In this document: positions 19,580 to 52,986 of the stretch, one piece after another
How the letters are laid out: each line of letters starts with the position of its first letter
How positions within the stretch are numbered: the stretch's first letter is position 1
NCBI GenBank assembly: GCA_007376195.1
Contig: VMFT01000001.1
Location: forward strand, 1 to 54,487
DNA length: 54,487 nt
Direction of reading: 5' to 3'
From: Parcubacteria group bacterium Gr01-1014_29
GTDB taxonomy: Bacteria; Patescibacteriota; Minisyncoccia; Ryanbacterales; 2-02-FULL-48-12
Translations under genes and position numbers: made by a program
Notes under the pieces: model-generated
Databases searched by the model: none
What the model was told of the DNA's origin: nothing
The model's input: the letters and a program-made list of their open reading frames with translations, nothing else

Positions 19580-19646
19580 GGTATCCCGCCTCTGGCGGGA
19601 TGCTCATAAAATATAGTCGTTTTACTCCTTATTTTATGGCACATAC
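19580..19646 (+). repeat. Double-hairpin leader element, copy 1 (overlaps rpmA start)
   Basis: atcccgcc-tct-ggcgggat then gctcataaaata...tattttATGgc; homologous to 39011-39078 and 52918-52986. Confidence 0.85.
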
Positions 19647-19923
19647 AAAATCCGCGGGTTCTACAGCGAATGTCCGCGACTCACAACCAAAATACCGCGG
19701 TATCAAAATCCACGACGGCCAGCGCGCAACAACCGGCACTATTATCGTACGCCAAGTTGGCTCGCGGGTTGTAGCCGGGCCAGGCGTACGTCAAGGCAGA
19801 GATTTTACGCTGTATGCCGCTTGGGATGGCATTGTAAAATTTTCCACGAAACGAAAGCAACACTTTGACGGTTCTATTATGCGAAAGAAGGTAGTAAGTG
19901 TTGTTTTGTTATCCCGCACTTGA
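19636..19923 (+). CDS. rpmA: 50S ribosomal protein L27
   Basis: MAHTKSAGST, RDSQPKYRGIK, IIVRQ, GRDFTLYA. Confidence 0.97.
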   Translation: MAHTKSAGSTANVRDSQPKYRGIKIHDGQRATTGTIIVRQVGSRVVAGPGVRQGRDFTLYAAWDGIVKFSTKRKQHFDGSIMRKKVVSVVLLSRT

Positions 19924-21558
19924 GCCTTTCTTAATCGCCGCCCGCACGAATGCTAGAAACAGCGGATGTGGTTCCAAGAGGCGCGATTGAAATTCCGGAT
20001 GGAATTGAGTGGCGACAAAAAATGGATGATTAGCAAGCTCAATAATTTCTACCAGGTTTCGTTCTGGGTTTACACCCGAAACAACAAGACCTTTTTTTAT
20101 TAAGCGCTCGCGAAGGGCGTTATTTAGTTCATAGCGGTGGCGGTGGCGTTCTGTGATGCGCGCGGTGCTGTAGGCGTCATATGCTTGTGTTCCCTGCTGA
20201 AGGCGGCACGCGTATGATCCCAACCGCATGGAGCCACCCATGTGTTTTGCTGCGATGTTTTCTTTCTGTTCCGGCAATACGTCAATAACTGGATATTTTG
20301 TTTTAGGATCAACTTCTGTGGTGTGCGCGCCTTCCATATGGGCCACATTGCGCGCAAATTCAACCACCGCGAGGTGCATGCCGTAACAGAGACCGAGATA
20401 CGGAATATTGTTTTTCCGGCAGAATTCTATGACGTGGATTTTGCCTTCCACTCCTCGGCTTCCGAAGCCGCCGGGTACTACAATGCCGTCAAAATCGCGT
20501 AAGCCCCACAACGTTTTCGGATCCTGCTCATACTCTTCAGCATTTAACCAGTGTAATTCTGGTACACGTTTTTCCGCCCACGCTGCATGTTTCAGCGCTT
20601 CAATTACAGAAATATAAGAATCAGAGAGTGTGAAAGCGCCTGTTCCGAAATATTTTCCTACGATTCCTATTTTCAGCGTTTTTTTGGCGGTATGCGTCTG
20701 TCGCACACGCTCCTGCCAAGCACTCATGTCTTTCTTTTTGCGTACCGGCATGTGGAATTTCTGCAGTAAGCGGTCTCCCAGCGCTTCTTTTTCAAAATTC
20801 AGAGGAACTTCATATATGGAAGAAACATCGGGGGCTGAAATAATATCATCTTCTCGCATGTTGCAAAATACCGAAACTTTCTGTTTCCGTGGCTTATCCA
20901 AAGGAACCGATGAACGGGCAAGAATAATATCCGGTTGAATTCCGGCAGTATTCAGTGAGCGTACCGCATGTTGCGTTGGTTTCGTCTTCATCTCTCCTAT
21001 CATGTTAGGGATAGGGAAATAACTGACCATCACAAATAATACGTCCTCTGGATGTTGAAGCTTCATCATCCGGCCTGCCTCTAAGAATAATAGGTTTTCA
21101 TACTCTCCTACTGTGCCGCCTATCTCGATCATCACGAAATCGGCCGCGGTTTTTTTGGCTGCAAACTTGATTCGGTGTATGACCTCCTCTGGAATATGCG
21201 GCACCACAGAAACACATTTACCCTGGTACTCAAGATTGCGCTCTTTGGTAATAACGGATAAATAGACAGCGCCCGTGGTTAGGTAGTTATACGCGTGCAT
21301 GTTCTCTCCCAAGAACCGCTCGTAATTACCGATATCCTGGTCGCATTCCATTCCGTCTGTTGTAACAAAAACCTCCCCATGTTCTGTAGGGTTCATGGTT
21401 CCGGCATCCACATTAATATACGGATCAATCTTGAGAGCTGTTACGCAGTATCCGCGCGATTGCAAAATTTTGCCGATGGAAGACGTTGCAATACCCTTGC
21501 CAATGCCGGACATAACTCCCCCCACCACAAAAATATATCGAATAGATTTAGTCACCAC
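19909..21558 (-). CDS. pyrG: CTP synthase
   Basis: GGVMSGIGKG, DPYINVDAGTM, KTKPTQH, GLCYGM, ERHRHRYE, QFHPEF. Confidence 0.98.
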   Translation of the reverse strand: MVTKSIRYIFVVGGVMSGIGKGIATSSIGKILQSRGYCVTALKIDPYINVDAGTMNPTEHGEVFVTTDGMECDQDIGNYERFLGENMHAYNYLTTGAVYLSVITKERNLEYQGKCVSVVPHIPEEVIHRIKFAAKKTAADFVMIEIGGTVGEYENLLFLEAGRMMKLQHPEDVLFVMVSYFPIPNMIGEMKTKPTQHAVRSLNTAGIQPDIILARSSVPLDKPRKQKVSVFCNMREDDIISAPDVSSIYEVPLNFEKEALGDRLLQKFHMPVRKKKDMSAWQERVRQTHTAKKTLKIGIVGKYFGTGAFTLSDSYISVIEALKHAAWAEKRVPELHWLNAEEYEQDPKTLWGLRDFDGIVVPGGFGSRGVEGKIHVIEFCRKNNIPYLGLCYGMHLAVVEFARNVAHMEGAHTTEVDPKTKYPVIDVLPEQKENIAAKHMGGSMRLGSYACRLQQGTQAYDAYSTARITERHRHRYELNNALRERLIKKGLVVSGVNPERNLVEIIELANHPFFVATQFHPEFQSRLLEPHPLFLAFVRAAIKKGSSAG

Positions 21559-21994
21559 GCTCCACAGCTAATAACAGAGAACCATGTGAATCTTGGTCAA
21601 ATTGCAGAACAACGGAATAGGTGCCAAGTGCTTTAATATGATCTTCCAGACGGATGTATTTTTCTAAATCAGCGTATCCTTTTTTGCTAAGCAACTCCGC
21701 AACGTCATGTTCAGTGACAGACCCAAAAAGATGTCCCTCCGGCGTTGCTTTGCGAAAAACCACCAGATGTTCGTTTTTCAAGGCATCAAGTATCTTGAGA
21801 AAATGTTCGCGGTCTTTGGCATCCTGCAGTGCTGCGCGCGCGCGCAGAACTTCAACCTCTTTTATACCAGCAGGCGTGGCAGGTTTTGCAAGCCCCCGCG
21901 GCATGAGAAAATTACGAAAAAACCCTGCGGCAACATCTTTTATGTCACCTACTCCTCCAAGATTATCTACCTGTTTTAGTAAAATGATTTGCAT
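21548..21994 (-). CDS. rplI: 50S ribosomal protein L9
   Basis: MQIILLKQVDNLG, GFFRNFLMP, LFGSVT. Confidence 0.96.
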   Translation of the reverse strand: MQIILLKQVDNLGGVGDIKDVAAGFFRNFLMPRGLAKPATPAGIKEVEVLRARAALQDAKDREHFLKILDALKNEHLVVFRKATPEGHLFGSVTEHDVAELLSKKGYADLEKYIRLEDHIKALGTYSVVLQFDQDSHGSLLLAVERGD

Positions 21995-22068
21995 ACAAAT
22001 TACCTCGCCTGCATCTTCTACCACCCCAGCCCCTCCTCTGTGGTTGCCCCCAACTTACCAGTACCACT

Positions 22069-23280
22069 CTACTCCATGCCGCGCAATAGTTCAATAGCTT
22101 TCTCAAGCTGCGGATCTTTTAGGTCCTCAACATCCTCCGAATCAATCTCAACGACAATGTCCGGTTCAAGCCCTTCGTCCGACAGTGAAACCCCCGATGG
22201 CGTAAGCCACCGCGCAATGGTTACTTTCAGAGATGTTGTATCCGTTACCTCTACCAGTTCCTGCACAGAACCTTTGCCGTAGGTTTTCTTTCCAATTATC
22301 TTGATACCTTTTTGATCCCGGAGCGCGCCGGCAAGAATTTCCGAAGCCGAAGCCGAACCGTTATTTACCAGCACAACCGTCGGAATAGTGGCTAGCGCGT
22401 TGTACCCTTTGCTGCGATGCAGGAGCTCGCTCCCGTCGCCAAACTGCTCCCGCGCGACAATTTTGCCAGACTCCAAAAACCAGCTTGCAATATCTACCGC
22501 CGCTTCCAAAAGCCCGCCGGGGTTATTGCGTACATCCAACACCAACTTAGTACTGCCCGAGCGCGCCATTTCTTCAAGGGCACGACGAAATTCAAGCTGG
22601 GCGTTTTCAGAAAAATTATACAAATGAATTACAAAAATGCCGCCTTCCCGTTTTTCCATCTCAAGTATCGGGATGTGGATAGTATCGCGCGTAATTTTTA
22701 TGACGCGCGTTTCATCTTCGCCCTTCCGTACTATCATAAGCGCGACAATGGTATCCTTTTGGCCCCGAATATGGCGCACTGCCTCCTCAAGCGTAAGATC
22801 GGCTGTTGAGATATCATCAATTTGAAGAATTGTATCCCCTGCCAATAAACCAGCCTCAGCAGCGGGAGACCCGGTAAGCGGCGATATTACAACAAGGACC
22901 CCTTTTCGCATGCCAATTTCTGCCCCTATTCCTTCAAACTTCCCTTGAATTTCAGATTCAAAAAGTTCCTGTTCCACTGGCGGAAAAAATACCGTATAGG
23001 GGTCGTCCAGTGCGCGCACCATGCCGCTTACGGCCCCGTATACCATCTTCTGGCGGTCAAGCTCGCCCGATGCGACGTACTTGTCTTCAAGGATGCTCCA
23101 TGCCTTCCAGAACGGAGAAAAATCGACTTCAGTAGGCTTTGCGGTTTCTTTATTATAGAGCGATGTTACAAGGTCAATTGCAGGCCGTTGGTTGTATCCC
23201 ACATATACGCCAACACCAAAACCGGCCCCCACAACCAGGAGTGCGAGCCCATAGACAGCGAACTTTTTTATAAAAAGCAT
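22069..23280 (-). CDS. Carboxyl-terminal processing protease (S41, PDZ)
   Basis: LDDPYT, GIGAEI, DVRNNPGG, SASASEI, GKGSVQ; ATG 23280. Confidence 0.94.
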   Translation of the reverse strand: MLFIKKFAVYGLALLVVGAGFGVGVYVGYNQRPAIDLVTSLYNKETAKPTEVDFSPFWKAWSILEDKYVASGELDRQKMVYGAVSGMVRALDDPYTVFFPPVEQELFESEIQGKFEGIGAEIGMRKGVLVVISPLTGSPAAEAGLLAGDTILQIDDISTADLTLEEAVRHIRGQKDTIVALMIVRKGEDETRVIKITRDTIHIPILEMEKREGGIFVIHLYNFSENAQLEFRRALEEMARSGSTKLVLDVRNNPGGLLEAAVDIASWFLESGKIVAREQFGDGSELLHRSKGYNALATIPTVVLVNNGSASASEILAGALRDQKGIKIIGKKTYGKGSVQELVEVTDTTSLKVTIARWLTPSGVSLSDEGLEPDIVVEIDSEDVEDLKDPQLEKAIELLRGME

Positions 23281-23365
23281 AGACGTAGTATCGCAAACAA
23301 AAAAGCCCCGGTCAAATCCGGAGCAGCTATTGAATGTCTTGCATAATATACGGTATACTAGATAT

Positions 23366-24271
23366 ATGCCCACTATCCACGGAAAAAATTTCATCTGGAC
23401 GCATCTCAATAAGCCGTCGGAAGAAGATATATTAGAAATTGCAAAAAATCGCGATCTTCATTTTTTGGTCGCAGATGAACTGTTGCACCCTACCTTCCGC
23501 CCCAAGGTGGAACAGTATGGCAGTCATTTGTATCTCATACTTCACTTCCCTAAATACGACGCGCAGGATTCCAACCGTGGCAACGAAATAGATTTTGTCA
23601 TCGGTAAAGATTTTCTCATTACCACCCAATATGCTCCTCTGCCGGCACTCGAAGAATTTGTAACATCCTGTGAAACTGACAAACGAAAAGCAATGCAGTA
23701 TCTCACCAACACAGGTGAGTTACTCTACCATCTTCTTTCACGCCTTTTTGCCTATTCTCTCACGGAACTTGAGAAAATGGACAAAAAAATTTCTGCTATG
23801 GAAAATAGTATATTTCGAGAACAAAATCGAAAATATGTAGAAGATATCTCGCTGCTGAGAAGAGAAATACTGGATTTTCGGCGTATAATTCATCCGCAAC
23901 AGTCGGTCTTGCGATCCTTAGAAGAAGAAGGCAAAGTATTTTTTGGAAAAGACATGTGCTTATACCTCTCCCGTATTATTGGTGATTATCTTCGTATGTG
24001 GCACATTCTTGAAAACCACAAAGAAACCGTGGAAGCGCTCCACGAAACAAATGAATCACTCTTGTCCATACGCACTGCTGAAATTACAAAAAACCTTACC
24101 ATCATGGCGTTCATCGCCTTGCCGCTTACCTTGCTCGCAAACTTATTTGGCATGAATGTGTCCTCTTTCCCTATTGTGGGCAACCCCTATGATTTTTGGA
24201 TTATAGTCGGAATCATGTTTGTTGGCATTCTGGGAATGTTTGTCTTCTTTAAATGGAAAAAGTGGATATAA
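23366..24271 (+). CDS. corA: CorA-family Mg2+/divalent cation transporter
   Basis: RPKVE, GMN motif, two C-terminal TMs, KWKKWI end. Confidence 0.93.
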   Translation: MPTIHGKNFIWTHLNKPSEEDILEIAKNRDLHFLVADELLHPTFRPKVEQYGSHLYLILHFPKYDAQDSNRGNEIDFVIGKDFLITTQYAPLPALEEFVTSCETDKRKAMQYLTNTGELLYHLLSRLFAYSLTELEKMDKKISAMENSIFREQNRKYVEDISLLRREILDFRRIIHPQQSVLRSLEEEGKVFFGKDMCLYLSRIIGDYLRMWHILENHKETVEALHETNESLLSIRTAEITKNLTIMAFIALPLTLLANLFGMNVSSFPIVGNPYDFWIIVGIMFVGILGMFVFFKWKKWI

Positions 24272-24314
24272 AATCAACGAATAACGAATCCAGTACGAAT
24301 CTACGAATACTAAT
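24269..24314 (+). repeat. ACGAAT periodic repeat
   Basis: aaaatcaacgaataacgaatccagtacgaatctacgaata, similar to reverse complement of 52329-52368. Confidence 0.75.
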
Positions 24315-25694
24315 ATGTCTCTCAAACTCTATAACACATTTTCGAGGAAAAAAGAAGTTTTTAAACCCTTGAAAAAGGGTTTTGTTGGATTATATACCTG
24401 CGGCCCCACCGTCTATAACTATGTGCATATTGGAAATCTCCGCACATATATTTTTGAAGATGTTCTGCGACGCACTCTCGAAGCGCATGGATATACGGTA
24501 CAGCATATTATGAACGTTACGGACGTAGATGACAAAACAATAGCGGCTTCAAAACACGCCAAGAAAGATTTGAGTGTGTTTACCAAAGAATATGAAAAAG
24601 CGTTTGGTGATGATAGTGCAAAACTCAATATCCTCGCTCCCACACGGCCGTTTGTGCGCGCCACTGAACATATTCCGGCAATGATTATGCTTATACAAAA
24701 GCTGCTCCGCAAAAACTACGCATACGAAAAAGGCGGCTCGGTATATTTTGACATATCAAAGTTTGCGCCATACGGAAAACTGGCGCATTTGGATAAAAAA
24801 GGATTGAAAGCCGGCGCGCGCATAGATGTTGATGAATACGCAAAAGATGCCGCACAAGACTTTGTTCTTTGGAAGGCGGCAAAAGCAGGAGAACCCTCCT
24901 GGCCTGCGCCATTTGGCTCGGGGCGGCCCGGCTGGCATATTGAATGCTCGGCTATGGCCACCGCCTATCTGAAACAGCCGTTTGATATTCACGCGGGCGG
25001 GGTAGATCTTATATTCCCCCACCACGAGAACGAAATCGCTCAGTCAGAAGCGGCATATAACAAACCATTCGCGCGCTACTGGCTGCACGGGGAGCATCTC
25101 CTCGTAGACGGAGAAAAAATGTCAAAATCGCTCGGTAATACCTATACGCTCCGTGACATCGAAAAAAAAGAGTTTACCCCTCTCTCCCTCCGGTATTTGG
25201 TACTCATGGCGCATTACCGCACAAAATTAAATTTCACATGGCAGTCGCTCAAAAGCGCGCAACAAGCCTACCGAGAACTTGTTGAATTTACAAAAGAATT
25301 GATAGCAGAAAAAAGCGCGGCTCCGATAAAAACTGCTCATTCGTATGCGTCGTATGAAAAAAAATTCTTTGCGGCGCTAGACGATGATCTCAACACGCCA
25401 AAAGCGCTTGCGGTGCTGTGGCAATTTATCCGCGCTTACCACAAGGCAAAAACAACGTACCCAAACGCAGCCTACGCACTCCTGTTAAAATGTGACGCCG
25501 TGCTGGGACTTGAATTTGCGGAAGTAACATTATTAAAAATTCCCCTTGCTATCCAACAGCTTGCCGAAAAACGCGAGCAGTTTCGGACGGAAAAAAAATG
25601 GCAGGAAGCCGACGCTCTGCGCGCCAAAATTGAGAAAATGGGCTGGCAAATTCTAGATACGGATGCCGGCTCCACATTAAAACCACGGATGTGA
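24315..25694 (+). CDS. cysS: Cysteine--tRNA ligase
   Basis: CGPTVY, HIGN, GRPGWHIECS, FPHHENE, KMSKS. Confidence 0.98.
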   Translation: MSLKLYNTFSRKKEVFKPLKKGFVGLYTCGPTVYNYVHIGNLRTYIFEDVLRRTLEAHGYTVQHIMNVTDVDDKTIAASKHAKKDLSVFTKEYEKAFGDDSAKLNILAPTRPFVRATEHIPAMIMLIQKLLRKNYAYEKGGSVYFDISKFAPYGKLAHLDKKGLKAGARIDVDEYAKDAAQDFVLWKAAKAGEPSWPAPFGSGRPGWHIECSAMATAYLKQPFDIHAGGVDLIFPHHENEIAQSEAAYNKPFARYWLHGEHLLVDGEKMSKSLGNTYTLRDIEKKEFTPLSLRYLVLMAHYRTKLNFTWQSLKSAQQAYRELVEFTKELIAEKSAAPIKTAHSYASYEKKFFAALDDDLNTPKALAVLWQFIRAYHKAKTTYPNAAYALLLKCDAVLGLEFAEVTLLKIPLAIQQLAEKREQFRTEKKWQEADALRAKIEKMGWQILDTDAGSTLKPRM

Positions 25695-25845
25695 CTAGCC
25701 GAACTTCGCACACGAGCATAAGCGAGTTGTGAGTAGTTCGGCTCGGCACATCAGTAGCAGTTTCTGTAGACTCCCTGTAATAAAAGCGCCTGTGCCAAGC
25801 CAAGCTATCTTCCGGTGTAACCGGAATAGAGCTCGGCTAGTCACA
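25690..25845. repeat. BIME-like inverted pair of REP-like units
   Basis: Unit TGTGCCRAGCCRARCTA...AGYTCGGCTAGTCACA on minus (25690-25750) and plus (25791-25845); third copy at 40108-40170. Confidence 0.85.
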
Positions 25846-25914
25846 AAGTGCTGACATAATAAGCGTGAGGGGGTACTCCACATGTTATAGACATCTTCTA
25901 AACAGGTATTTGTG

Positions 25915-25943
25915 TTGAATGCGCCACGCAGGGCCTTTATACT
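25915..25943 (+). promoter_or_regulatory. Sigma70 promoter for dnaB (leaderless)
   Basis: TTGAAT-17-TATACT, 6 nt before ATG. Confidence 0.65.
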
Positions 25944-25949
25944 ACTCCT

Positions 25950-27356
25950 ATGGCAGAATCTCTCCAAAAAACAACTTTTTCAATGCAGCCGGTAGCTACC
26001 TTCTCGGGCATGCGCATGCCCCCGCAAGACACGGATGCTGAAATGGCCGTATTGGGTTCATTAATGCTTGATAAGGAGGCGTTTAGTAAAATCGCGGATA
26101 GTTTGCAGTCTTCCTGTTTTTACCGCGACCAGCACCGCATTATTTACGAAGTCATGCAGGATTTGTTTGAAAAGCGGATACCAGTAGATGTGTTGTCCGT
26201 ATCAAGCCGCCTGCGTGAAAAGAAACAACTGGAAGATGTCGGCGGCATGAGTTACTTGACGTCTCTGGTGAATATTGTGCCAACAGCAAGCAATGTGGCG
26301 CATTATGCCGAAATTGTTCGCCACAAGTACATATTGCGGAGCATTATTAGCACCTCGCAAGAAATAAGCCAGCTTGGATACCAGGAATCTGATGAGGTGG
26401 AAAAACTACTGGACGAGGCTGAAAAGAAAATTTTTAGTATATCGCACGGCTCGCTCCGCCAGCGATTTGCGCCCATCTCGGAAGCGCTTGAAGCTGCATG
26501 GGAACGCATTGATAATCTCCAAAAAGGCGAGCACCTACGTGGTGTCGCAACCGGTTTTACCAAACTTGATAATCTGCTTTCCGGCCTTCAAAAATCAGAT
26601 CTCATCATTCTCGCGGCTCGGCCGTCATTCGGCAAAACAAGCCTTGCGTTGGATATTGCGCGCCACGCCGCCATTAAAGAAAATATACCAGTCGGTATCT
26701 TCAGCCTTGAAATGTCCATCGAACAGCTTGTTGATCGACTGCTGGCCGCGGAAGCCGATGTAGACTCCTGGAAGCTCCGCACCGGCAGGCTATCTCATGA
26801 CTCGGATGAATTCCTGCGCATCCGCGACGCACTGGAACGCCTGTCAAAAGCTCCTCTTTTTATTGACGATGAACCATCCAATAATATTCTTCAGATGCGC
26901 GCTATGGCCCGGCGGCTTCAGGCAGAACATGGCCTCGGCCTTATTATTGTTGACTACATTCAGCTCATTACATACCACAAGGCAAATTCAGAAAGTCTTG
27001 TGCGAGAAGTAACAGAAATTTCGCGGGCGTTGAAAGGTCTTGCGCGCGAGCTTGAAGTGCCTGTTCTCGCCATCTCCCAGCTTTCGCGCGCCGTTGAACA
27101 GCGCCACCCCCCTATTCCGCGGCTTTCAGACTTACGGGAAAGCGGTAGTTTGGAGCAAGATGCGGATATGGTTCTTTTCATATATCGCGAAGACCGCTAT
27201 AAAGATACCGACGACAAAAAGAATATTGTCGAGGTGCAAATCGCAAAGCACCGCAACGGCCCATTGGGTAAAGTGAGTCTTCATTTCAACCCTGAAAGAA
27301 TTTCCTTTGTCGGTCTTGAAAAAAATATCCCTCCCGATTCCTATGGCGTATCCTAA
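25950..27356 (+). CDS. dnaB: Replicative DNA helicase
   Basis: AARPSFGKT, FSLEM, VDYIQL, SQLSR, LSDLRESGSLEQDAD, KHRNG. Confidence 0.98.
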   Translation: MAESLQKTTFSMQPVATFSGMRMPPQDTDAEMAVLGSLMLDKEAFSKIADSLQSSCFYRDQHRIIYEVMQDLFEKRIPVDVLSVSSRLREKKQLEDVGGMSYLTSLVNIVPTASNVAHYAEIVRHKYILRSIISTSQEISQLGYQESDEVEKLLDEAEKKIFSISHGSLRQRFAPISEALEAAWERIDNLQKGEHLRGVATGFTKLDNLLSGLQKSDLIILAARPSFGKTSLALDIARHAAIKENIPVGIFSLEMSIEQLVDRLLAAEADVDSWKLRTGRLSHDSDEFLRIRDALERLSKAPLFIDDEPSNNILQMRAMARRLQAEHGLGLIIVDYIQLITYHKANSESLVREVTEISRALKGLARELEVPVLAISQLSRAVEQRHPPIPRLSDLRESGSLEQDADMVLFIYREDRYKDTDDKKNIVEVQIAKHRNGPLGKVSLHFNPERISFVGLEKNIPPDSYGVS

Positions 27357-37841: not shown

Positions 37842-38159
37842 TCATAGTGTGATGTCTATAGCAACTGAGGAATCCCGCGCCACAAAATAAACGGGACCCG
37901 CAGTTGATAAATTAAGTTCTCGCGCTTTTTGTTCAAGCCAAGAGCCCACCACTAAATGTGCGCGCTCAACTTCCAATGAACGCACCTCTTCTTTTAGCTG
38001 CAAAATGCGCTGTTCGTCCGATTGTATACCGAACGTACGCATTGCAACCCCATTAATGCTATAAATATAGAGTGCGGCAAACACAAGAAAACACAAACTC
38101 AACAATCCTGCAAAAACGGGGATGAGAATTTTAGAAAACTTGTATGAAATTATTGTCAT
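37842..38159 (-). CDS. ftsL: FtsL-like cell division protein
   Basis: Single TM plus coiled coil ending LEQKARELNL, between rsmH and ftsI. Confidence 0.7.
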   Translation of the reverse strand: MTIISYKFSKILIPVFAGLLSLCFLVFAALYIYSINGVAMRTFGIQSDEQRILQLKEEVRSLEVERAHLVVGSWLEQKARELNLSTAGPVYFVARDSSVAIDITL

Positions 38160-39022
38160 AAACGTTCTGCAACGCGTAATTTTGCGGACCGCGCGCGAAG
38201 ATTGTTTCTCATTTCTTCCGTCGCCGCGCGTACTGGTTTTTTTATAACACGTTTTACAATATCTTCTTGCTCTAAACTGCGAAATATATCTTTTACAATA
38301 CGATCCTCACCCGAATGAAACGATAGCACTGCGATACGGCCTCCCGGCTTGAGCAACCAGACAGCGCGCTCCACTCCCTGGGCAACATGTTTCAATTCAT
38401 CATTAACGCACATGCGTAATGCTTGAAATGTCCGTGTTGCAAAGTGAATTCTGCCCTGGCGATAGCGCCCAGGAACCGCTCTTCGGATAATCTCCACGAG
38501 TTGAAACGTGCGTTCAATGGGAACGCGGTCGCGTTCCCGAACAATTTGACGCGCTATGCTTCGCCCAAACCGCTCTTCTCCTGTGGTTCGCAATAACTCG
38601 CGCAATTCATGTTCCGGCCACTTGTTGATAATGTCGCGGGCCGGAATATCTTTTCGGCTATCAAACCGCATATCCAACGGTTCATCCCGCAAGAATGAAA
38701 ATCCGCGTCCTGATTGCTCTATGTGAAAAGAACTAAAGCCAAGATCAAATATAATACCATCTACATCTGTAAAACCGTGATCCTCTGCAATATGTTGGAT
38801 ATTTGCAAACGTGTCGCAGATAAGTTGAAAGTCTGAAACCTGAAATTTTTCTACAAGTTCACAGTCTCTATCGATGCCAAGGAGTTTTCCTTTTTTCCCG
38901 ATACGTTCCGCAATGGCTTTTGCGTGTCCGCCGCCATTTATGGTGGCATCTATAAACACGTCGCCCGGCCGGGGATTCAGATATTCCAGAACTTCGTTCA
39001 GTAAAACAGGTGTATGTGCCAA
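38156..39022 (-). CDS. rsmH: 16S rRNA C1402 N4-methyltransferase
   Basis: HTPVLL, DATINGGGH, DLGFSS, PLDMR, FQALR, SFHSGEDR, RSAKLR; TTG start. Confidence 0.97.
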   Translation of the reverse strand: MAHTPVLLNEVLEYLNPRPGDVFIDATINGGGHAKAIAERIGKKGKLLGIDRDCELVEKFQVSDFQLICDTFANIQHIAEDHGFTDVDGIIFDLGFSSFHIEQSGRGFSFLRDEPLDMRFDSRKDIPARDIINKWPEHELRELLRTTGEERFGRSIARQIVRERDRVPIERTFQLVEIIRRAVPGRYRQGRIHFATRTFQALRMCVNDELKHVAQGVERAVWLLKPGGRIAVLSFHSGEDRIVKDIFRSLEQEDIVKRVIKKPVRAATEEMRNNLRARSAKLRVAERL

Positions 39023-39078
39023 AAAATAATGAACGTTAGTGAATATATTTTTTGAGCATCCCGAGTGAAGCGAGGGGC
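39011..39078 (-). repeat. Double-hairpin leader element, copy 2 (overlaps rsmH start)
   Basis: gggatgctcaaaaaatatattcactaacgttcattatttttTGGcacat, near-identical to the frr copy. Confidence 0.9.
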
Positions 39079-39086
39079 TACTCTAT

Positions 39087-45495: not shown

Positions 45496-45501
45496 GTACC
45501 A

Positions 45502-46275: not shown

Positions 46276-47302
46276 GTTCCAACAATACGTTACGCAACAT
46301 ATCGAGATCCTCCAGAATAACGCCGGTACCGCGCACAACCGCAACCAGTGGATCATCCGCGATGCGTACAGGCATACGGGTCTCGCGCTCAATTATATTC
46401 GCGAGGCCGCGCAACAGCGCACCGCCGCCAACCAAAACGATACCGCGATGCATGATATCAGCCACAAGCTCGGGAGGTGTATCTTCAATGGTCGCCTTGA
46501 TAGACGTGACAATATGTTTTACCGAACGCATAATTGCTTCGCGTATATCAGCACTTGTTACAATAATCTCGCGCGGTAGACCGGTTATAAGATCGCGCCC
46601 GCGCATAGGAGATTCCAAATCTTCATCTCCCTCCCATACCGATCCTATGGCAATTTTAATGTCTTCGGCAGTACGTTCCCCAATAAGCATTTTTAACTCA
46701 TCGCGCGCAAAGTGAATGATATCATGGTTGAGCTTGTCTCCCGCTGTTTTAATGTTACGCGATGCCACAATACCACCCAACGATATGACGGCAATATCAG
46801 TTGTTCCGCCGCCGATATCAACTATCATATTTCCAATCGGCTCCTGTACCGGCATGCGTATGCCAATCGCCCCCGCCATAGGCTCTTCAACTAAATACAC
46901 TTCCCGCGCTCCGGCGCTCACTGCCGCGTCCCGTACGGCCCGGCGCTCTACTTCAGTCGTTGCGGAGGGAATGCCGATCACAACACGAGGACGCGCAAGA
47001 AAACTATACCGTGTGTCATGCACCTTGCGGATAAAATATTTCATCATCTCCTCGGTAACCTCAAAGTCAGAAATCACACCCTCTACCAGCGGGCGTATCG
47101 CCACAATATGCGCTGGCGTGCGGCCCACCATGCGCCGCGCTTCGTTGCCAACTGCGACAACTTGGTTTGTTTTCTGGTTGATGGCAACAACAGATGGTTC
47201 GTTTATCACAACGCCAGCGCCACGCACATACACCAGAGTATTTGCGGTTCCCAGGTCAATGCCAATGTCTTTGGAAAACAATCTGAAAAGTCTGTCGAAC
47301 AT
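46253..47302 (-). CDS. mreB: Actin-like protein MreB
   Basis: GIDLGTANT, EPSVVA, EEPMA, DIGGGTT, GGGALL. Confidence 0.98.
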   Translation of the reverse strand: MFDRLFRLFSKDIGIDLGTANTLVYVRGAGVVINEPSVVAINQKTNQVVAVGNEARRMVGRTPAHIVAIRPLVEGVISDFEVTEEMMKYFIRKVHDTRYSFLARPRVVIGIPSATTEVERRAVRDAAVSAGAREVYLVEEPMAGAIGIRMPVQEPIGNMIVDIGGGTTDIAVISLGGIVASRNIKTAGDKLNHDIIHFARDELKMLIGERTAEDIKIAIGSVWEGDEDLESPMRGRDLITGLPREIIVTSADIREAIMRSVKHIVTSIKATIEDTPPELVADIMHRGIVLVGGGALLRGLANIIERETRMPVRIADDPLVAVVRGTGVILEDLDMLRNVLLEHETEVVA

Positions 47303-47308
47303 ATCGTG

Positions 47309-47425
47309 TGAAATTTTCAATTACCAATTTTCAATTTTCAATCAATATCTCAATGACTCAATTTTCATTGAAAATTATAGAATTGAAAATTTATTGAAAA
47401 TTGAGACTTGAAAATTGGAAATTAT
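47309..47425. repeat. Heptamer inverted array (caatttt/aaaattg) overlapping the proS 3' end
   Basis: Repeated caatttt/caattac then aaaattg units; encodes the ProRS tail NFQFSSLNFQ. Confidence 0.8.
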
Positions 47426-48647
47426 CTAATGGTAATAACTGCATTTTCCCCCCACTGCGCTCTTTAACTTCGACTTGATTCTGTTCCACCGTGCGTTTAC
47501 TAACAACTATCCGCCATGGTATGCCTATCAAATCTGCATCGGCAAATTTTTCTCCGGCGCTCTTATCCTCGCGATCATCATATAACACCTCGATACCCGC
47601 TCTTTCTAACTCTTGAATGATATGTGCGGTCTCTTCTTCCTTACCGTCGAGCACTACCACATGCGCGTCGTAGGGTGCAATAGAAGCAGGCCATATAATA
47701 CCCCTATTGTCAGCAAACACCTCTACAACAGCGCCCATGAGCCGCCCAAGGCCAATGCCATAACTGCCCATTATAACGGGTTTTTCGTTTCCTTCCTCGT
47801 CCCGGAACCGTAACCCCATCGCTTCGGCATACTTTGTGCCAAGCGGAAAAATATTACCAACTTCTATTGATTTTTTTTCCGTCATGGTATCCTTATCCAA
47901 ACCAAGTTGCGCAATGGTCTCATCAGTATATATCTCTTTGTTTATCGCAATCTTTTTTTCTGTATCAATATAAATAGTATCTTCCCCCGACGCGCTCAAT
48001 GTCTGAAATTCATCTGTAAAACCGGTAGTGAACGAGCCTCCTGCCGCGAAGGTGCGGTATGTTAGGGCGCCCAAACCCATGCGTTCAAAAATTTTCATAT
48101 ACGCCTCGGCGCATTGTTCATAAAATTGCTTGAATTCCTCTTCAGAACGGCTAAATGAATAAAGGTCTTTCATCATAAACTCGCGCGTTCGCATAATACC
48201 GCTCTTGGCACGAAGCTCATTACGAAACTTTGTCTGAAACTGATAGATATAAAGAGGCAAATCCTTATAGGAACTCACAAAATGCGTAAGAAGAGCGGTC
48301 AGCGGTTCTTCATGTGTATTTGCAATACCAACTTCCCCGCCACTTGTTAGTTTACTTTTAAACCAATTGTCAACCACCGCGTCATCCCACCGGCCGCTTT
48401 TCTGCCATAGTGCCGGATCCTGAAGTGTGGTAAGAAGCACCTCTTCGGCGCCAAGGGCATTCATTTCTTCCCGAATAATCTCTTCTATGTTTTTAAACAC
48501 GCGAAAGCCAAGGGGTAAATAGGTATATACCCCGGCCATTTCTTTATGAATAAAGCCCGCTTGAATCAGCAGTTGTGCATTACGGCTTTGCTCGTCTTTG
48601 GGCGCCTCCCGCCGAGTTTTTGTGAATAACTGCGACATACGTTGCAT
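47391..48647 (-). CDS. proS: Proline--tRNA ligase (short, no editing domain)
   Basis: THEE, KFRNELR, REFMMKDLYSF, EVGNIF, MGSYGIG, GEKFADADLIG. Confidence 0.97.
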   Translation of the reverse strand: MQRMSQLFTKTRREAPKDEQSRNAQLLIQAGFIHKEMAGVYTYLPLGFRVFKNIEEIIREEMNALGAEEVLLTTLQDPALWQKSGRWDDAVVDNWFKSKLTSGGEVGIANTHEEPLTALLTHFVSSYKDLPLYIYQFQTKFRNELRAKSGIMRTREFMMKDLYSFSRSEEEFKQFYEQCAEAYMKIFERMGLGALTYRTFAAGGSFTTGFTDEFQTLSASGEDTIYIDTEKKIAINKEIYTDETIAQLGLDKDTMTEKKSIEVGNIFPLGTKYAEAMGLRFRDEEGNEKPVIMGSYGIGLGRLMGAVVEVFADNRGIIWPASIAPYDAHVVVLDGKEEETAHIIQELERAGIEVLYDDREDKSAGEKFADADLIGIPWRIVVSKRTVEQNQVEVKERSGGKMQLLPLDNFQFSSLNFQ

Positions 48648-48655
48648 ACGACCCT

Positions 48656-48684
48656 AGTATAGAGAAGAATGAGAATTTAAGCAA
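48656..48684 (-). promoter_or_regulatory. Sigma70 promoter for proS (leaderless)
   Basis: TTGCTT-17-TATACT, 8 nt before ATG. Confidence 0.6.
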
Positions 48685-48719
48685 AAAAGCGGCCCCGTGC
48701 TGGATAACCGCTTAACCTC

Positions 48720-49154
48720 TCACCAATGATGATGCATCCACTTAAGTGCGGCCATAACCGCAACCATCCTGCCTTCTAGCAAATATGCGCGGAGATTCCT
48801 TGGCACCCAAGGCGGAATGGATCTTCCGGATATTTCAGGTAATGAATACCATGGCGGCTCATTTCGGCAGCCGCGAAATTTAGTTGTCTCTTCAAATGTG
48901 TCGTCAGGTTGATACTGGGCCATTTCAAAACACTTATCGACAAGCATGTAGATCCAGTACAATTTGTCATGTACAATATACAGTTCTGGTTCTTTCTGAA
49001 GTTCGGGGTAATTCTTTCGTCGAAATACTTTTCGTATAACGCCGTGTTCTTCAGAAATAATCATACCAAGCTCGGCTATTGAAAAAACCTGCAAAAGAAG
49101 ATATCCAACCCTATAACCTCCCTTCAACGACAAGAACTTTTTTATTTCAAACAT
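48720..49154 (-). CDS. Hypothetical protein (144 aa)
   Basis: ATG 49154 with GGAGG SD and TTGACA-17-TAGCAT promoter (49177-49205). Confidence 0.7.
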   Translation of the reverse strand: MFEIKKFLSLKGGYRVGYLLLQVFSIAELGMIISEEHGVIRKVFRRKNYPELQKEPELYIVHDKLYWIYMLVDKCFEMAQYQPDDTFEETTKFRGCRNEPPWYSLPEISGRSIPPWVPRNLRAYLLEGRMVAVMAALKWMHHHW

Positions 49155-49212
49155 AGTGCCTCCGATCTTTCTCTGAATGCTATAAAAACGTCTCTGCCAT
49201 GTCAATAGCAGG

Positions 49213-49265
49213 AACCGCGGGCCTTTGTAGTTGTATGCCGGCATGTCTACTTCTTCAAGAAAAAT
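49213..49265 (-). pseudogene. 3' fragment of a second DUF1653 gene
   Basis: Encodes FLEEVDMPAYNYKGPRF versus FLEEVDMPEYNYKGPRF in 50102-50350. Confidence 0.8.
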
Positions 49266-49299
49266 CCCACCAAAATATATGCGCAAGAAACAAAACATT

Positions 49300-49339
49300 A
49301 TTCCTAAGTATTCAGACGACCGTCTAAACTTTTAGGAAT
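49300..49339. repeat. 40-bp palindrome downstream of the PaaX-like gene
   Basis: attcctaa...agacgaccgtct...ttaggaat. Confidence 0.85.
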
Positions 49340-49391
49340 TTTATTTTCTCCCAATTTACTATTTCAATACCATTTCAATATCATCATTATT

Positions 49392-50039
49392 TTACTTATC
49401 GTGCAAAGAAAATAATTTTCGCAAATATTCATCCCCCTCCATTCTTTCCGTAACAAAATAGAGCACATCATGTCCCAGCTTGAGATTTATTTTAAGTAAT
49501 GCAAGCGCTTCCTCACATTCATATGGATATATCCAAACACTGTTCTGTAACTTCCGAAATCCCATGTTTGTAAGTTCTATTCGGAGATGATCTCTAACTT
49601 TCCGCCGCTTTTCCAACACATCAAATACCACGACACGCCACTTACCATCCCACACCATCGAACTATTTTCTGTTTTGAATCGAAGTTGGTGAAATCGTTT
49701 TTCTCCTTTTTCTGTCAATTTTACACTCGGTATGTTTCCATTGGTTTGATCTAATATAATCACTCCTTCATTTTTCAACCGCCGCAATGTTTCACTGACA
49801 CGATATCGAGGGTTATTTTTCTTCCAACGACCCGGTTCAATAAACCGGAGTATTTGTACCGCATTCGGGGCAAGGATAGCAATACTCACAATACTTGCGA
49901 TACCTATAATTCCCAGAATTACATCGCTTATCGGCACTTTACCTTCGTATTCCTGCAAATATGGGATGAGGTCATTGCTCCATCCACTCTTTATAGGATT
50001 CCTGTCTGTGTTTTTCCTTTCCCTATTCTTCAATAACAT
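49392..50039 (-). CDS. PaaX-like protein (winged helix plus Cas2/VapD-like ferredoxin domain)
   Basis: LRRLKNEG...KLTEKG, WDGKWRVVVFDV, RDHLR, GFRKLQNSVW. Confidence 0.85.
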   Translation of the reverse strand: MLLKNRERKNTDRNPIKSGWSNDLIPYLQEYEGKVPISDVILGIIGIASIVSIAILAPNAVQILRFIEPGRWKKNNPRYRVSETLRRLKNEGVIILDQTNGNIPSVKLTEKGEKRFHQLRFKTENSSMVWDGKWRVVVFDVLEKRRKVRDHLRIELTNMGFRKLQNSVWIYPYECEEALALLKINLKLGHDVLYFVTERMEGDEYLRKLFSLHDK

Positions 50040-50068
50040 AAATTGTTTTTACTAAATATTGATATATT

Positions 50069-50110
50069 GATTCCTAAATTATCAGACGGTCGTTCTACAT
50101 TTTAGGAATC
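50069..50110. repeat. 42-bp palindrome upstream of the PaaX-like gene
   Basis: gattcctaaa...agacggtcgt...tttaggaatc, homologous to 49300-49339. Confidence 0.85.
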
Positions 50111-50350
50111 CTTCTCCGTTTTATCTTCATTATCCACTATAAACCGAAATCGAGGGCCTTTGTAGTTGTATTCTGGCATGTCCACTTCCTCCAAAAACAT
50201 GTCTTTTGGGCGTATCTCAATACGAAACTCACCATATAAAGGCACATACAACACCATTGACTCACGCGTCTCGTGATGGCATCCTTCGCCGATTACCAGA
50301 TAATCTTTGCCTTTGTAATGCCGATAAATTCCTTTTTTGATTTCTGACAT
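50102..50350 (-). CDS. DUF1653 domain protein
   Basis: GIYRHYKGKDY, HHET, VLY..LYG, RPKDMF, PRF. Confidence 0.9.
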   Translation of the reverse strand: MSEIKKGIYRHYKGKDYLVIGEGCHHETRESMVLYVPLYGEFRIEIRPKDMFLEEVDMPEYNYKGPRFRFIVDNEDKTEKDS

Positions 50351-50362
50351 ATACTTATACAC

Positions 50363-50393
50363 AACTGATTGGACACTCGGTGTCTGATCAGTT
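50363..50393. repeat. Palindrome (ACAC-CGR-GTGT family, inverted copy)
   Basis: aactgattggacac-tcg-gtgtctgatcagtt, similar to reverse complement of 16602-16634. Confidence 0.85.
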
Positions 50394-50410
50394 TAGGTAA
50401 CCGCGAGGGA

Positions 50411-51049
50411 TTAATTATTTTCAGCAACACTTCGAGGCTTTTGTTCAACTTTTCCAAATCTCCCTTCTTCCATATATTGAATGAATCTATTCACTATTGC
50501 CTGTTGTGAATCAGCTTTCCCTTCCAGTAGTGACGAACCTTTTCCTCCTTGAAGAAACGATTGTAAGCTTTTTTTATTCGTATATCTTGCTTGCGCAAGC
50601 CCCTTCTCCTGCTTTATTACTATACGAAAAAGAATTTCTTCTTCCTTGCCTTGCAAGAATTTGGGAACACCCTCGTTATGAATGAGTTTGCGCGCCGCTT
50701 CTAATTGGGGTTGCAATTTCAGCACAGTAATGTCTTTTTCTTCAATTTTTTTAGTGCGATAACGGAGAATTGCCAGTTCAGGATCACTCCGATCATTATA
50801 GATCCGAAGCGCCATAAGGTTTCCAATCCTGGGTCTCAAGATGTTTTGCTTTCCTACTGCGTGCTCAGGATCCACAAAAAACAATTGGATACCATCGGTA
50901 TCCCGTTCAGCTACAAAGAGGTGGGGATGGCGTGTCCCTTTCTCTTTCTCACCTACAAGGATGATAGTTTGATACGATTCGTCAGTTTCAAATTCCTGTG
51001 TCAAGTCAAGTAAACGCTCCCGTATTTCTTGAGGAATAACTCGTTCCAA
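50411..51049 (-). CDS. Hypothetical protein (212 aa)
   Basis: Long AT-rich ORF filling the spacer; TTG start; no recognisable motif. Confidence 0.65.
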   Translation of the reverse strand: MERVIPQEIRERLLDLTQEFETDESYQTIILVGEKEKGTRHPHLFVAERDTDGIQLFFVDPEHAVGKQNILRPRIGNLMALRIYNDRSDPELAILRYRTKKIEEKDITVLKLQPQLEAARKLIHNEGVPKFLQGKEEEILFRIVIKQEKGLAQARYTNKKSLQSFLQGGKGSSLLEGKADSQQAIVNRFIQYMEEGRFGKVEQKPRSVAENN

Positions 51050-51197
51050 GAGTTATTCGCTAGTATATTCAGTATTTTCAATAGCAAGTGGCTGGTTTTT
51101 AGACGAGATATTATCCAGGAGATCAGGAATAATATTTTTTTGTATCCTTTCGAAATTATATTTCATTTCGCCCTAATTACCTAAATTTATTTGACAA

Positions 51198-52286
51198 TTA
51201 GAAAATTCTTGCAAGGTCAAAATAGGTAACAACCAGCATCAAAAAAATAAGAGCAACAAAACCTGCTGTATGCGCGAATTGGCTTATGTGAAGAGGAACA
51301 GGAGCGCCGCGCAATTTTTCGATTATGAGAAAAAATATGCGCCCGCCGTCAAGCGCCGGTATTGGCAGGAGATTTAATACGGCAAGATTAATTGAAAGCA
51401 CCGCCACAAGCTGAAGAAGATACACAAATCCGAGCCGAGTCGCCTCGCCCGCGATCTGGGCAATGCCAACCGGTCCTGCAACAGAACCGGTAATATCGGC
51501 ACTGAAGATATTCGTAAAAAATGATGCGAGACCCACCGAAACAGCTTTTGTGGTGTAGATAGTTGTTTTTAGTCCCTCCCACGGGGCACGATACCAAGGG
51601 GTGCGCACAATACCAATTTTCGCCATCGCAATGCCTAAAAGTCCCTCTCCTGCAGGCGCCTCTTCCCTCAAAGCAACGGCAAGATGCTGCTCGCCATCTG
51701 ATCTTGCTATTACAATGGTAAGTTCCTCACCGGCGTGCCTTTTTACAAATTCTTGCACATTCACAACGTCCACAATGCGCATCGTTTCGGACAACGATTC
51801 TAATTCCACTATTGCATCCCCCGGCACCATACCGACTTGGTGAGCTGGAGAATCGGGAACAACTTCCACAACACGCACTACCGCATCGCGCGCACCTTCG
51901 CCACTCCCGACCACGCTGGGAATACCAATCCCATGCCCCAAGGTAAAAAGCACATACGCCAACACCATATTCATCGCGACACCCGCAACCAACACCAAAA
52001 ACCTGTCCCATGCGCTGCGCATTGCGAAATTTCTCGCTGAATCATCCTCCTTCGCTAAAGCTTCGGAGGACGAGTCTTCTCCCCATACGCGCACAAACCC
52101 ACCAAGCGGAAGCAGGTTTATAGAATAAAATGTCTCGCCGTACTGCTTGCCAAAAAGCCGCGGCGGAAACCCGAAACCGAATTCATCCACCCGCATGCCT
52201 TTCCATTTGGCAACTATAAAATGGCCAAATTCATGGCTTAAAACCAACACGGCTATGACTGCTAAAAAAATAAGGAGAGTAAACAT
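51198..52286 (-). CDS. rseP: RIP metalloprotease RseP (M50, PDZ)
   Basis: HEFGH, GFPP, PLGGFV, AGVAMN, GPVGI, NLLPIPALDGG. Confidence 0.96.
   Translation of the reverse strand: MFTLLIFLAVIAVLVLSHEFGHFIVAKWKGMRVDEFGFGFPPRLFGKQYGETFYSINLLPLGGFVRVWGEDSSSEALAKEDDSARNFAMRSAWDRFLVLVAGVAMNMVLAYVLFTLGHGIGIPSVVGSGEGARDAVVRVVEVVPDSPAHQVGMVPGDAIVELESLSETMRIVDVVNVQEFVKRHAGEELTIVIARSDGEQHLAVALREEAPAGEGLLGIAMAKIGIVRTPWYRAPWEGLKTTIYTTKAVSVGLASFFTNIFSADITGSVAGPVGIAQIAGEATRLGFVYLLQLVAVLSINLAVLNLLPIPALDGGRIFFLIIEKLRGAPVPLHISQFAHTAGFVALIFLMLVVTYFDLARIF
52042..52073. repeat. Palindromic element in-frame within rseP
   Basis: Minus strand tcgtcctcc-gaagctttagcgaa-ggaggatga, encodes SSSEALAKED. Confidence 0.8.
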
Positions 52287-52292
52287 ATAAGT

Positions 52293-52368
52293 TAATCAGC
52301 AAATAACGAATCAGTCGCGAATGAACGAATTCGTATATTCGTAATCAATTCGCTATTCGTTGATTTTA
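52293..52368. repeat. ACGAAT/ATTCGT periodic inverted repeat
   Basis: acgaat/gcgaat/acgaat then attcgt/attcgt/attcgc/attcgt; related to 24269-24314. Confidence 0.75.
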
Positions 52369-52920
52369 AACTTCCATTATTTCCTTCTCTTTCTTCTCCC
52401 GCACATTCTCTAATTCTGTGTTAAACCCATCCATCTTTTTCTGCAATTCATCTTTCGCGCGAAATTTCTCATCTTCGGAAATTGTTTTCTCTTTCTCGGC
52501 GGCCTGAACATCCTTCCATGCCTCATCGCGGACTCTGCGCGAACGCACCCGCGCCTCTTCTGCTTTTGCGCTAAGAATCTTCAGAAGATCCTTACGGCGT
52601 TCTTCGGTAAGCTGGGGAAGCGTCAGTCGGATATGATCACCATCTGCAATAGGCACTATATAAAGCGGTGAATTCTCAATTGCTTTGGCAATTGCTTCCA
52701 ACGCCGCCTTATCCCACGGTTGTATCACCAGAGACCGGGCATCAGGCGTAGAAATTGACGCAATATGCTTCAAGGGCGTTTTCGCGCCATAATACTCCAC
52801 TTCCAAATCTTCCAGAAGCGCTGGCGAGGCACGCCCCGTCCGTAAAGAAGCAATCTCACTACGAAACCATTCGCGGATTGAGGCAAACTCGTTTTCCATT
52901 TTTTTTAAAACCTGTTGCAT
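52366..52920 (-). CDS. frr: Ribosome recycling factor
   Basis: LRTGRASP, VEYYG, IQPWD, PQLTEERR, KEKEIM. Confidence 0.97.
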   Translation of the reverse strand: MQQVLKKMENEFASIREWFRSEIASLRTGRASPALLEDLEVEYYGAKTPLKHIASISTPDARSLVIQPWDKAALEAIAKAIENSPLYIVPIADGDHIRLTLPQLTEERRKDLLKILSAKAEEARVRSRRVRDEAWKDVQAAEKEKTISEDEKFRAKDELQKKMDGFNTELENVREKKEKEIMEV

Positions 52921-52986
52921 GTGCCAAAAAATAATGAGCGTTAGCGAATATATTTTTTGAGCATCCCGTCGTTAGGCGGGATGCCT
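52918..52986 (-). repeat. Double-hairpin leader element, copy 3 (abuts frr start)
   Basis: gcatcccgcctaacgacgggatgctcaaaaaatatattcgctaacgctcattattttttggcacATG. Confidence 0.9.

Follow-up and report, generated by a model that had tools for sequence, protein, structure and literature searches.

The REP/BIME and REPIN-RAYT families are short extragenic hairpin repeats that are conserved in structure, often stand as inverted pairs, are cotranscribed, are patchily distributed, and lie mostly after genes. The Correia/NEMIS elements of Neisseria and the ERIC/IRU elements are small, nonautonomous palindromic elements near genes; they are transcribed, can alter expression or processing, and are polymorphic for insertion. 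Pneumococcal BOX elements are modular (boxA-boxB-boxC) and are not known to dock on start codons. Integron attC sites are structure-specific, imperfect hairpins with an extrahelical base, used in one orientation and carrying the core sites RYYYAAC and GTTRRRY, and the autoregulatory leaders of ribosomal proteins L20, L13, and L21 are gene-specific mimics of rRNA sites. Here, we describe a two-hairpin element that lies at the start codons of rpmA, rsmH, and frr in a 54,487-nucleotide stretch of DNA (contig VMFT01000001.1, positions 1 to 54,487; referred to here as the window) from Parcubacteria group bacterium Gr01-1014_29, whose genome (G000) comprises 1,083,999 bases. This element is probably a dispersed, structure-defined insertion element of the REP, BOX, or miniature inverted-repeat transposable element (MITE) kind, with a subfamily that docks on start codons, and it would travel in mRNA leaders rather than serve as a dedicated regulator of translation genes.

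In this genome, the element consists of a GC-rich hairpin 1, which varies in sequence and keeps its pairing, directly abutting a second, A-U-rich hairpin 2. Like the REP/BIME and REPIN-RAYT repeats, it is a short hairpin repeat with few to hundreds of copies per genome and is met as inverted doublets (21 inverted pairs among the analyzed loci, some with a common hairpin 1); unlike them, it flanks no RAYT gene, has a longer hairpin with a conserved internal loop, and includes a subfamily docked in sense on starts. It shares with Correia/NEMIS and ERIC/IRU elements a small, palindromic, insertion-polymorphic character and a position beside genes, but neither terminal inverted repeats of the transposase type nor a TA duplication was seen in it, its stems covary freely, and its 3' end lies 0 to 3 nucleotides (nt) from the ATG. 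The modularity of BOX is mirrored by hairpin 1, hairpin 2, and a 26- to 27-nt module beginning with GAAGATACTGA, which occur in varied combinations; however, the sequences and hosts are others, and the element docks on start codons. As with attC, it stands between open reading frames (ORFs) in a single orientation, the next ORF starting a short way past its 3' end, and its 5' GCTCAAA fits RYYYAAC at 6 of 7 positions, but its 3' end, TTTGGCA, contains no GTTRRRY, and on its flanks are not cassettes but core housekeeping genes, arranged in the operons usual for them. Finally, although it resembles the ribosomal protein leaders in being a structured 5' leader before ribosomal protein genes, this one element stands before at least 14 unrelated genes in a single genome, has no Rfam match, and, in about 20 of 24 relatives, is missing before rplP. 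The literature covered, which comprised abstracts and passages of 2026 preprints, yielded no account of an element of this kind.

The three window copies were found where a first-pass annotation, made from the sequence alone, had placed them; all fold into two hairpins and are in sense with the gene downstream (Table 1). The AUG of rpmA (19636-19638) lies within the 3' arm of hairpin 2, where it pairs with CAU of the 5' arm, and the TTG start of rsmH (39022-39020) occupies the same place within the 3' arm of its copy. In the frr copy, hairpin 1 begins 2 nt past the stop codon of the upstream ORF, and hairpin 2 is followed by GCAC (of the tail GGCAC) and then the frr ATG (52920). The 3' end thus gives ATG GCA CAT in rpmA and TTG GCA CAT in rsmH and abuts the ATG of frr, as had been proposed, and the three window sequences show no Shine-Dalgarno (SD) motif of the GGAGG type, also in agreement with that annotation. 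The rpmA and frr copies, in whose folds the two hairpins directly abut, have folding energies of -25.9 kcal/mol (z -5.67) and -23.2 kcal/mol (z -4.52), respectively, with 0 of 200 shuffles as good in each case; the rsmH copy, in which the first hairpin is weak, folds at -11.2 kcal/mol (z -1.92), with 8 of 200 shuffles as good.

The lower stem of hairpin 2 comprises 10 pairs, almost all A-U (approximately 10 to 13 base pairs [bp]), and can be extended by UGC/GCA. Above it follow a bulged U, two pairs (AG/CU), a 2x2 UC/UC internal loop, two further pairs, and a loop of 3 to 4 nt. Among the 17 full-length copies in this genome, 98.2% of the cells are paired and 7 of 10 pairs have double changes, a result that 0 of 500 shuffles reached. 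In an alignment of 46 sequences that includes relatives, all 14 pairs covary, among them those of two apical helices lying outside the aligning model, and in 123 distinct sequences from relatives 96.3% are paired, with a covariation score of 0.636 compared to 0.175 in shuffles (0 of 500 as high). The compensatory change that had been pointed out in the rpmA copy (CATAAAATA/TATTTTATG) is real and is one among many covarying variants. The unpaired bases of the internal loop are nearly invariant: in the 46-row alignment, two rows of which lack the region, T46 and T56 are present in 44 of 44 rows and C47 is present in 43 of 44.

The Rfam search that the first-pass annotation called for matched the element to no known family. 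In E-value mode against Rfam 15, 12 loci from this genome yielded only tmRNA, tRNAs, and, at one of the 12 loci, a RAGATH-32 match with an E value of 0.8 (21.4 bits versus a gathering score of 41.8); in gathering mode, further loci yielded only tRNA and tmRNA, and E-value mode found nothing on the hairpin in nine loci from Gammaproteobacteria and the candidate phyla radiation. The loop may resemble the 3' end of 16S rRNA (AGUCGUAAC ... CCUCCUUA), and the GCUC... stretch may resemble boxA.

Throughout the genome, the 19-mer core with at most 2 mismatches has 12 matches, compared to 0 for the reversed control pattern, and nhmmer together with a covariance model recovered the 17 full-length copies (covariance model E <= 2.4e-11). 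Two variants come in addition: the tandem copy on C45 is partial, and the copy at C34:39735-39822 carries a further hairpin in its loop. Five copies are identical across all of hairpin 2. With the C34 variant included, 14 of 18 copies are docked in sense on a start codon, their 3' ends lying 0 to 3 nt before the start or containing it. On the upstream side, hairpin 1 begins anywhere from 2 to 156 nt after the stop codon. By Pfam, 7 of the 14 downstream genes belong to translation (L27, RsmH, RRF, L33, L35, L16, and a release factor), and the others encode NusG, GlmS, UvrC, FtsA, DnaG, an FtsE-like ABC ATPase, and a TrbC/VirB2-type pilin. The four remaining copies lie off start codons: two with swapped A/T arms (C43 and C23) continue into convergent genes for tRNA-Ala and tRNA-Gln, at the 3' ends of those genes, and two on C11 are followed by sequence of no recognized identity. 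The 26- to 27-nt module (GAAGATACTGA.CG.AG.GAACGTA) is found with GGGATG of the element on one side and CTCAAAA on the other, in some cases as tandem copies, at C22:3195-3350, C11:49880-49940, C6:12530-12610, and C34:39650-39760; because it is inserted in the element, the repeats are modular.

The copies from relatives were analyzed as 124 distinct sequences, which were chosen as the best-scoring and multicopy loci and are not a random sample. An ATG-initiated ORF of at least 25 codons begins at -6 to +8 of the stem end in 49 of these, versus 169 of 2000 random positions, and the offset is +1 in 30 of the 49; the other 75 have no adjacent ATG-ORF. Pfam searches with 48 docked ORFs identified 14 ribosomal proteins and 6 translation factors or enzymes (20 of 48 by Pfam and our own grouping), with glmS met 4 times and L16 3 times. 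Distinct downstream genes number 14 in G000 and more than 30 in the relatives, so this is not the leader of one operon. The 10-bp lower stem of docked copies contains a mean of 0.78 G-C pairs and at most 1, compared to a mean of 1.73 and a maximum of 5 in other copies (Mann-Whitney p = 3e-9, the copies not being independent). A dedicated cis-regulatory RNA of ribosome-related genes, which had been offered as one explanation, is unsupported as stated, since the element also stands before glmS, dnaG, uvrC, ftsA, and the pilin gene, flanks tRNAs, and occurs off starts by the hundreds in Gammaproteobacteria; what remains of that idea is the overrepresentation of translation genes and a possible RNA-level role of docked copies. 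Orientation is in sense at start codons for most copies of this genome; many copies elsewhere are off start codons, some of them flanking tRNAs.

Comparison with relatives suggested that the element is an insertion. At the rpsC-rplP junction, approximately 20 of 24 relatives have spacers of about 17 nt or less (by reading of the sequences); this element is present in G002, and other inserts are present in G004, G009, and G022. G005, which belongs to the same genus as G002, has no element at either rplP or glmS, and its empty glmS site reads TATAGTAAT directly followed by ATG; at the corresponding point, G000 and G002 have approximately 130 nt with the element and G004 has another repeat. In four relatives of the same family (G001, G003, G004, and G006), a 10- to 17-nt spacer stands in the place of the element before frr. 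The rsmH genes of G003 and G006 have the stop codon, 2 nt, and then ATGGCACAT, versus TTGGCACAT within the stem in G000. The rpmA start, in contrast, is ATGGCACAT (ATG GCA CAT) in all 13 relatives examined; here G002 retains only the 3' half of the hairpin, and in G013 the hairpin has diverged and its 3' arm holds the ATG. Element-free short spacers are thus common among orthologs at rplP, glmS, and frr, and the empty sites, the differences between congeners, and the identical copies within G000 together show insertion polymorphism and recent homogenization or spread. The alternative put forward at first, a microelement that has rewritten start codons, comes close to this evidence, as the element is missing at most of the relatives' rplP, glmS, frr, and rsmH sites; rewriting fits rsmH, whereas rpmA has kept ATGGCACAT and the compensating change lies in the 5' arm. 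The accompanying preference for a TGGCACAT target is insufficient, as element copies make up only 10 of 35 genomic [AT]TGGCACAT sites. In other genomes the tail is mostly GGCATG. GGCA belongs to the stem, its partner in the folded rsmH copy being the conserved UGC within GAUGCUC.

Unrelated palindromic repeats fill the same stop-to-start intervals at L049 (G004), L062 (G009), L071 (G022), and L199 (G004). To judge from these sequences, the rpsC-rplP junction and the junction upstream of glmS are recurrent landing sites for several repeat families.

A second setting of the element is the tRNA gene: of the 124 relative copies, 21 have a tRNA or tmRNA no more than 40 nt away. Inverted pairs enclose a tRNA-Gly or tRNA-Ala, with the two arms of hairpin 1 closing round this inner tRNA (Table 1). 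When a pair and 2 nt on each side were removed in silico, the outer flanks, once joined, formed a second tRNA whose anticodon equals that of the inner one; this held for 5 of 8 pairs, with 2 of these 5 called only at a relaxed ARAGORN threshold. The nested site is the anticodon loop of the outer tRNA, and rejoining gives an exact 7-nt anticodon loop. An ARAGORN intron search did not call the split outer tRNAs, which were seen only after the flanks were joined. A spliced intron in tRNA-Arg was considered and rejected, as a boundary 2 nt beyond the stems gives an outer anticodon equal to the inner one (Gly-UCC). This boundary has the same geometry as that at the AUG.

The element is not confined to the close relatives. 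A first model found it in 11 of 40 relatives, and a second model matched 50 of 150 other genomes of the class; at most 33 candidates were scored per genome, and the copy numbers of 1 to 32 are lower bounds. With a strict loop motif and one public genome per species, at least 127 stretches were found, the carriers among the matches listed being many Paceibacteria-type metagenome-assembled genomes, an Arenicellales genome, two Ca. Poriferihabitaceae, and one Saprospiraceae contig. In each of three gammaproteobacterial genomes of 2.6 to 3.1 Mb, the copies number at least 143. Here, hairpin 2 serves as a single module within 210- to 254-nt composite tandem repeats with several hairpin modules, and these lie off start codons (Table 1). 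G167, one of the high-copy-number genomes, is GC rich and has many spurious ORFs, and the ORF context around 20 of its copies was uninformative. A weak model match (E 0.003) at L028 (G038:C1:569812-569882) lies directly after a GGGAGGAAAGTCCGAGC stretch, which may represent the conserved core of RNase P RNA; the hairpin could be inserted in that gene.

Candidate mobilizing enzymes were sought among the Y1_Tnp (RAYT-like) genes. G000 has three (C39:13643-14320, C43:22735-23463, and C4:4869-5594), which encode proteins of 225 to 242 aa with an HxH motif, and among 41 genomes Y1_Tnp occurs in 10 of the 12 that carry the element and in 15 of the 29 that do not. On either side of the C39 and C4 genes, perfect palindromes particular to each can be seen, e.g., CAACTGACTAGACAC...GTGTCTAGTCAGTTG at C39. 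Separately, small GIY-YIG genes of approximately 80 to 85 aa lie at C23:2508-2762 and C22:13399-13623, with 6 tblastn matches in the genome; no link between these and the element is claimed, as only 2 of 18 copies adjoin one, also next to tRNAs.

Next, the signals for transcription and translation around the element were considered. In G000, an SD core is present at -20 to -4 in 61 of 456 unambiguous starts, versus 42 of 456 in a control window, and T(-12) and A(-11) peak before starts. This signal suggests -10 boxes 6 nt before the ATG, i.e., that many mRNAs may be leaderless. The 16S rRNA model RF00177 was not found in the G000 assembly, and two rRNA motifs gave only false matches. Upstream of the rpmG, rpmA, and uvrC copies, where no co-oriented gene precedes, there are TTGnnn-17/18-TAnnnT sites, and the dnaG copy has TGGTATAAT upstream (read by eye). 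The promoter-like site of rpmA lies approximately 20 nt upstream of hairpin 1, the regional count of such sites not being above that in shuffles, and TTGnnn-17-TAnnnT is found by eye at the equivalent place upstream of rpmA in relatives. A regular-expression scan of each copy for a sigma-70 site (-35 TTGnnn, 16 to 19 nt, TAnnnT) found upstream sites only and none inside the element. Because no internal -35 is present and the -10-like bases act as base pairs, the element is taken as a 5' leader or intercistronic spacer, and it is probably transcribed as such. No terminator-like site was found in 19300-19720 in a search for intrinsic terminators; hairpin 1 in sense is followed by an A run, and in the swapped-arm copies (C43 and C23) it is followed by CTCAATTTTT.

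These data bear on two rival explanations. One holds that the element is a promoter cassette, in which TATAGT/TATATT of the 5' half or TA(A/T)TTT of the 3' arm would act as a -10 box and yield a short-leader or leaderless transcript. TATA(G/T)T is indeed nearly invariant, TAWTTT lies 5 to 7 nt before the ATG, near the -12 to -7 position of -10 boxes in this genome, and such a cassette would account for the expression of genes whose coupling spacer has been replaced. However, the G/T of TATAGT/TATATT covaries with the C/A of CTCCTTA/CTCATTA (GC 24, UA 9, and GU 3 in the 46 sequences), which points to base pairing and not to promoter constraint, and the 3' arm changes freely as long as pairing is kept, including to TAAAAATTG before rplP of G002. 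Native promoter-like sites here have a TTG-type -35, the element has none at 16 to 19 nt, and the sigma-70-type sites of rpmA, rpmG, uvrC, and dnaG stand upstream of it; at rpmA, moreover, the ATG abuts the putative -10. We therefore consider a promoter cassette highly improbable. The other rival is a host-beneficial, cis-acting RNA, that is, a portable module for SD-independent starts, mRNA processing, or stability that serves leadered and internal cistrons in a lineage otherwise relying on leaderless or unstructured starts and that is copied by recombination, any DNA mobility being secondary. In a concrete form, an endonuclease would measure from the UC/UC loop along the constant stem and cut by the AUG, leaving a leaderless mRNA. 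The strict sense orientation, the fixed distance from helix base to AUG (offset +1 in 30 of 49) next to a variable upstream side, the conserved internal loop and constant stem length, and a lower stem with at most 1 G-C pair only beside an ORF all speak for this explanation, as do the SD-poor host, whose T(-12)A(-11) signal is of the kind usual at leaderless promoters, the mostly highly expressed housekeeping genes downstream, and the tRNA cassette boundary that repeats the geometry at the AUG. Nevertheless, most relatives run rplP, frr, and glmS off short plain spacers with no element, hundreds of gammaproteobacterial copies lie off starts inside composite repeats, 75 of 124 relative copies have no adjacent ATG-ORF, and no nuclease or binding protein was identified. 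On balance, a cis-acting RNA of this kind appears unlikely as the primary nature of the element.

We thus favor a dispersed insertion element with a start-docking subfamily, for which the following course may be envisaged. The docking subfamily (5' GAUGCUC..., 3' ...UGGCA) lies in sense with its 3' end 0 to 3 nt before the start codon or overlapping it, fills the interval from the upstream stop codon or promoter to the ATG, and would be transcribed with the gene. Spread would take place at the DNA level through a hairpin-recognizing mechanism, for which no candidate enzyme was identified. Docked copies may be tolerated or exploited because their weak lower stem would leave a U-rich stretch before the AUG, and this tolerance would be set in an organism that hardly uses SD sites. 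Several observations weigh against this account. No target site duplication was seen at the filled and empty glmS, rplP, and frr sites (by eye, at few sites), and no common target sequence for insertion was found. The element is met again in different families before glmS (5 genomes), rplP (4 genomes), and, as remnants in G002 and G013, rpmA, which could reflect RNA function, and selection for RNA function could also underlie the sharp +1 ATG spacing, the strict sense orientation, and the downstream excess of ribosomal and translation genes. Its presence in G000 and G002 and absence in G005 require repeated gain at the same site or precise loss. A RAYT as mobilizer is unsupported, as the three Y1 genes of G000 are flanked by other palindromes and not by the element, Y1_Tnp is found in 0 of 3 high-copy-number gammaproteobacterial genomes, and neither G011 nor G034, both of which carry the element, has it; no link of the element to a transposase or to any other enzyme was found. 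The data themselves set limits as well: the relative copies are the selected set described above, and the mismatch pattern (G-U/U-G in 13 cells versus A-C/C-A in 9) does not decide between the strands.

A bolder proposal, which we put forward tentatively and hold to be rather doubtful, is that an undescribed insertion system, structure-specific and spanning phyla, with an enzyme other than a Y1 HUH transposase, uses hairpin 2 as its recognition structure. In Patescibacteria, its targets would be positions just 5' of starts and the anticodon loops of tRNAs (with a replacement tRNA), and the start-docked form would have been domesticated as a portable SD-independent start or processing module for essential genes in organisms with leaderless mRNAs.

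Two gene models near copies deserve mention. Mechanically predicted ORFs begin inside the rpmA copy, at ATG 19607 (19182-19607, minus strand) and ATG 19600 (19600-19923, plus strand); by homology, rpmA starts at 19636, and the divergent membrane protein gene, read by eye, probably starts from approximately 19490 (MSIFLIVV...). The release factor gene behind one copy (G000:C22, L007:756-1472, minus strand) encodes only 239 aa and matches PCRF from position 101 of 194 on. An L31 gene ends 156 nt upstream of it, with only repeat modules between; the release factor either is naturally short or lost its 5' part at insertion.

Table 1. Positions of the element copies, their hairpins, and associated genes in the window, with loci of related arrangements in other genomes
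Feature	Position or locus	Strand	Basis or source
Copy 1 (rpmA), overall extent	19576-19646	+	Covariance model match 19576-19644
Copy 1, hairpin 1 (GC-rich, 11 bp)	19580..19604	+	Fold
Copy 1, hairpin 2	19605..19638	+	Fold, covariation, covariance model matches
rpmA, ribosomal protein L27	19636..19923	+	Pfam Ribosomal_L27, E 7.3e-26
Promoter-like site, sigma-70-type (TTGCTA-17-TATTAT, TG before -10)	19531..19559	+	Pattern; putative function
Copy 2 (rsmH), overall extent	39011-39083	-	Covariance model match 39014-39083
Copy 2, weak hairpin 1 (39060-39076) and hairpin 2 (39017-39058)	39017..39083	-	Fold, covariance model
rsmH, TTG start	38156..39022	-	Pfam Methyltransf_5 (MraW methylase), E 4.1e-92
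Copy 3 (frr), overall extent	52918-52988	-	Covariance model match 52919-52988
Copy 3, hairpin 1 (52960-52985) and hairpin 2 (52925-52959)	52925..52988	-	Fold, covariance model
frr, ribosome recycling factor	52366..52920	-	Pfam RRF, E 4.5e-55
Nested tRNA loci	L023, L087, L130, L116, L079, L082		Relatives G008, G107, G153, G079, G135, G097
Composite-unit tandem arrays	L220, L265		Public Arenicellales and Ca. Poriferihabitaceae records

For gene callers, elements of this kind are a source of false upstream starts (e.g., ATG 19600 and the ORF at 19182-19607, so that both genes at the rpmA copy may be overextended), and they also mislead those who hunt for regulatory RNAs. One hairpin family links repeats docked on start codons with cassettes in which one tRNA is nested in another, and its presence in sponge-type Gammaproteobacteria points to a widespread hairpin-recognizing mechanism. 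For the Patescibacteria, the finding is that tiny, tightly packed genomes tolerate structured inserts of 70 to 250 nt exactly between a stop codon or promoter and the start of an essential gene, such as rplP, rpmA, frr, glmS, or dnaG, which bears on how translation starts in a lineage almost without SD sequences.

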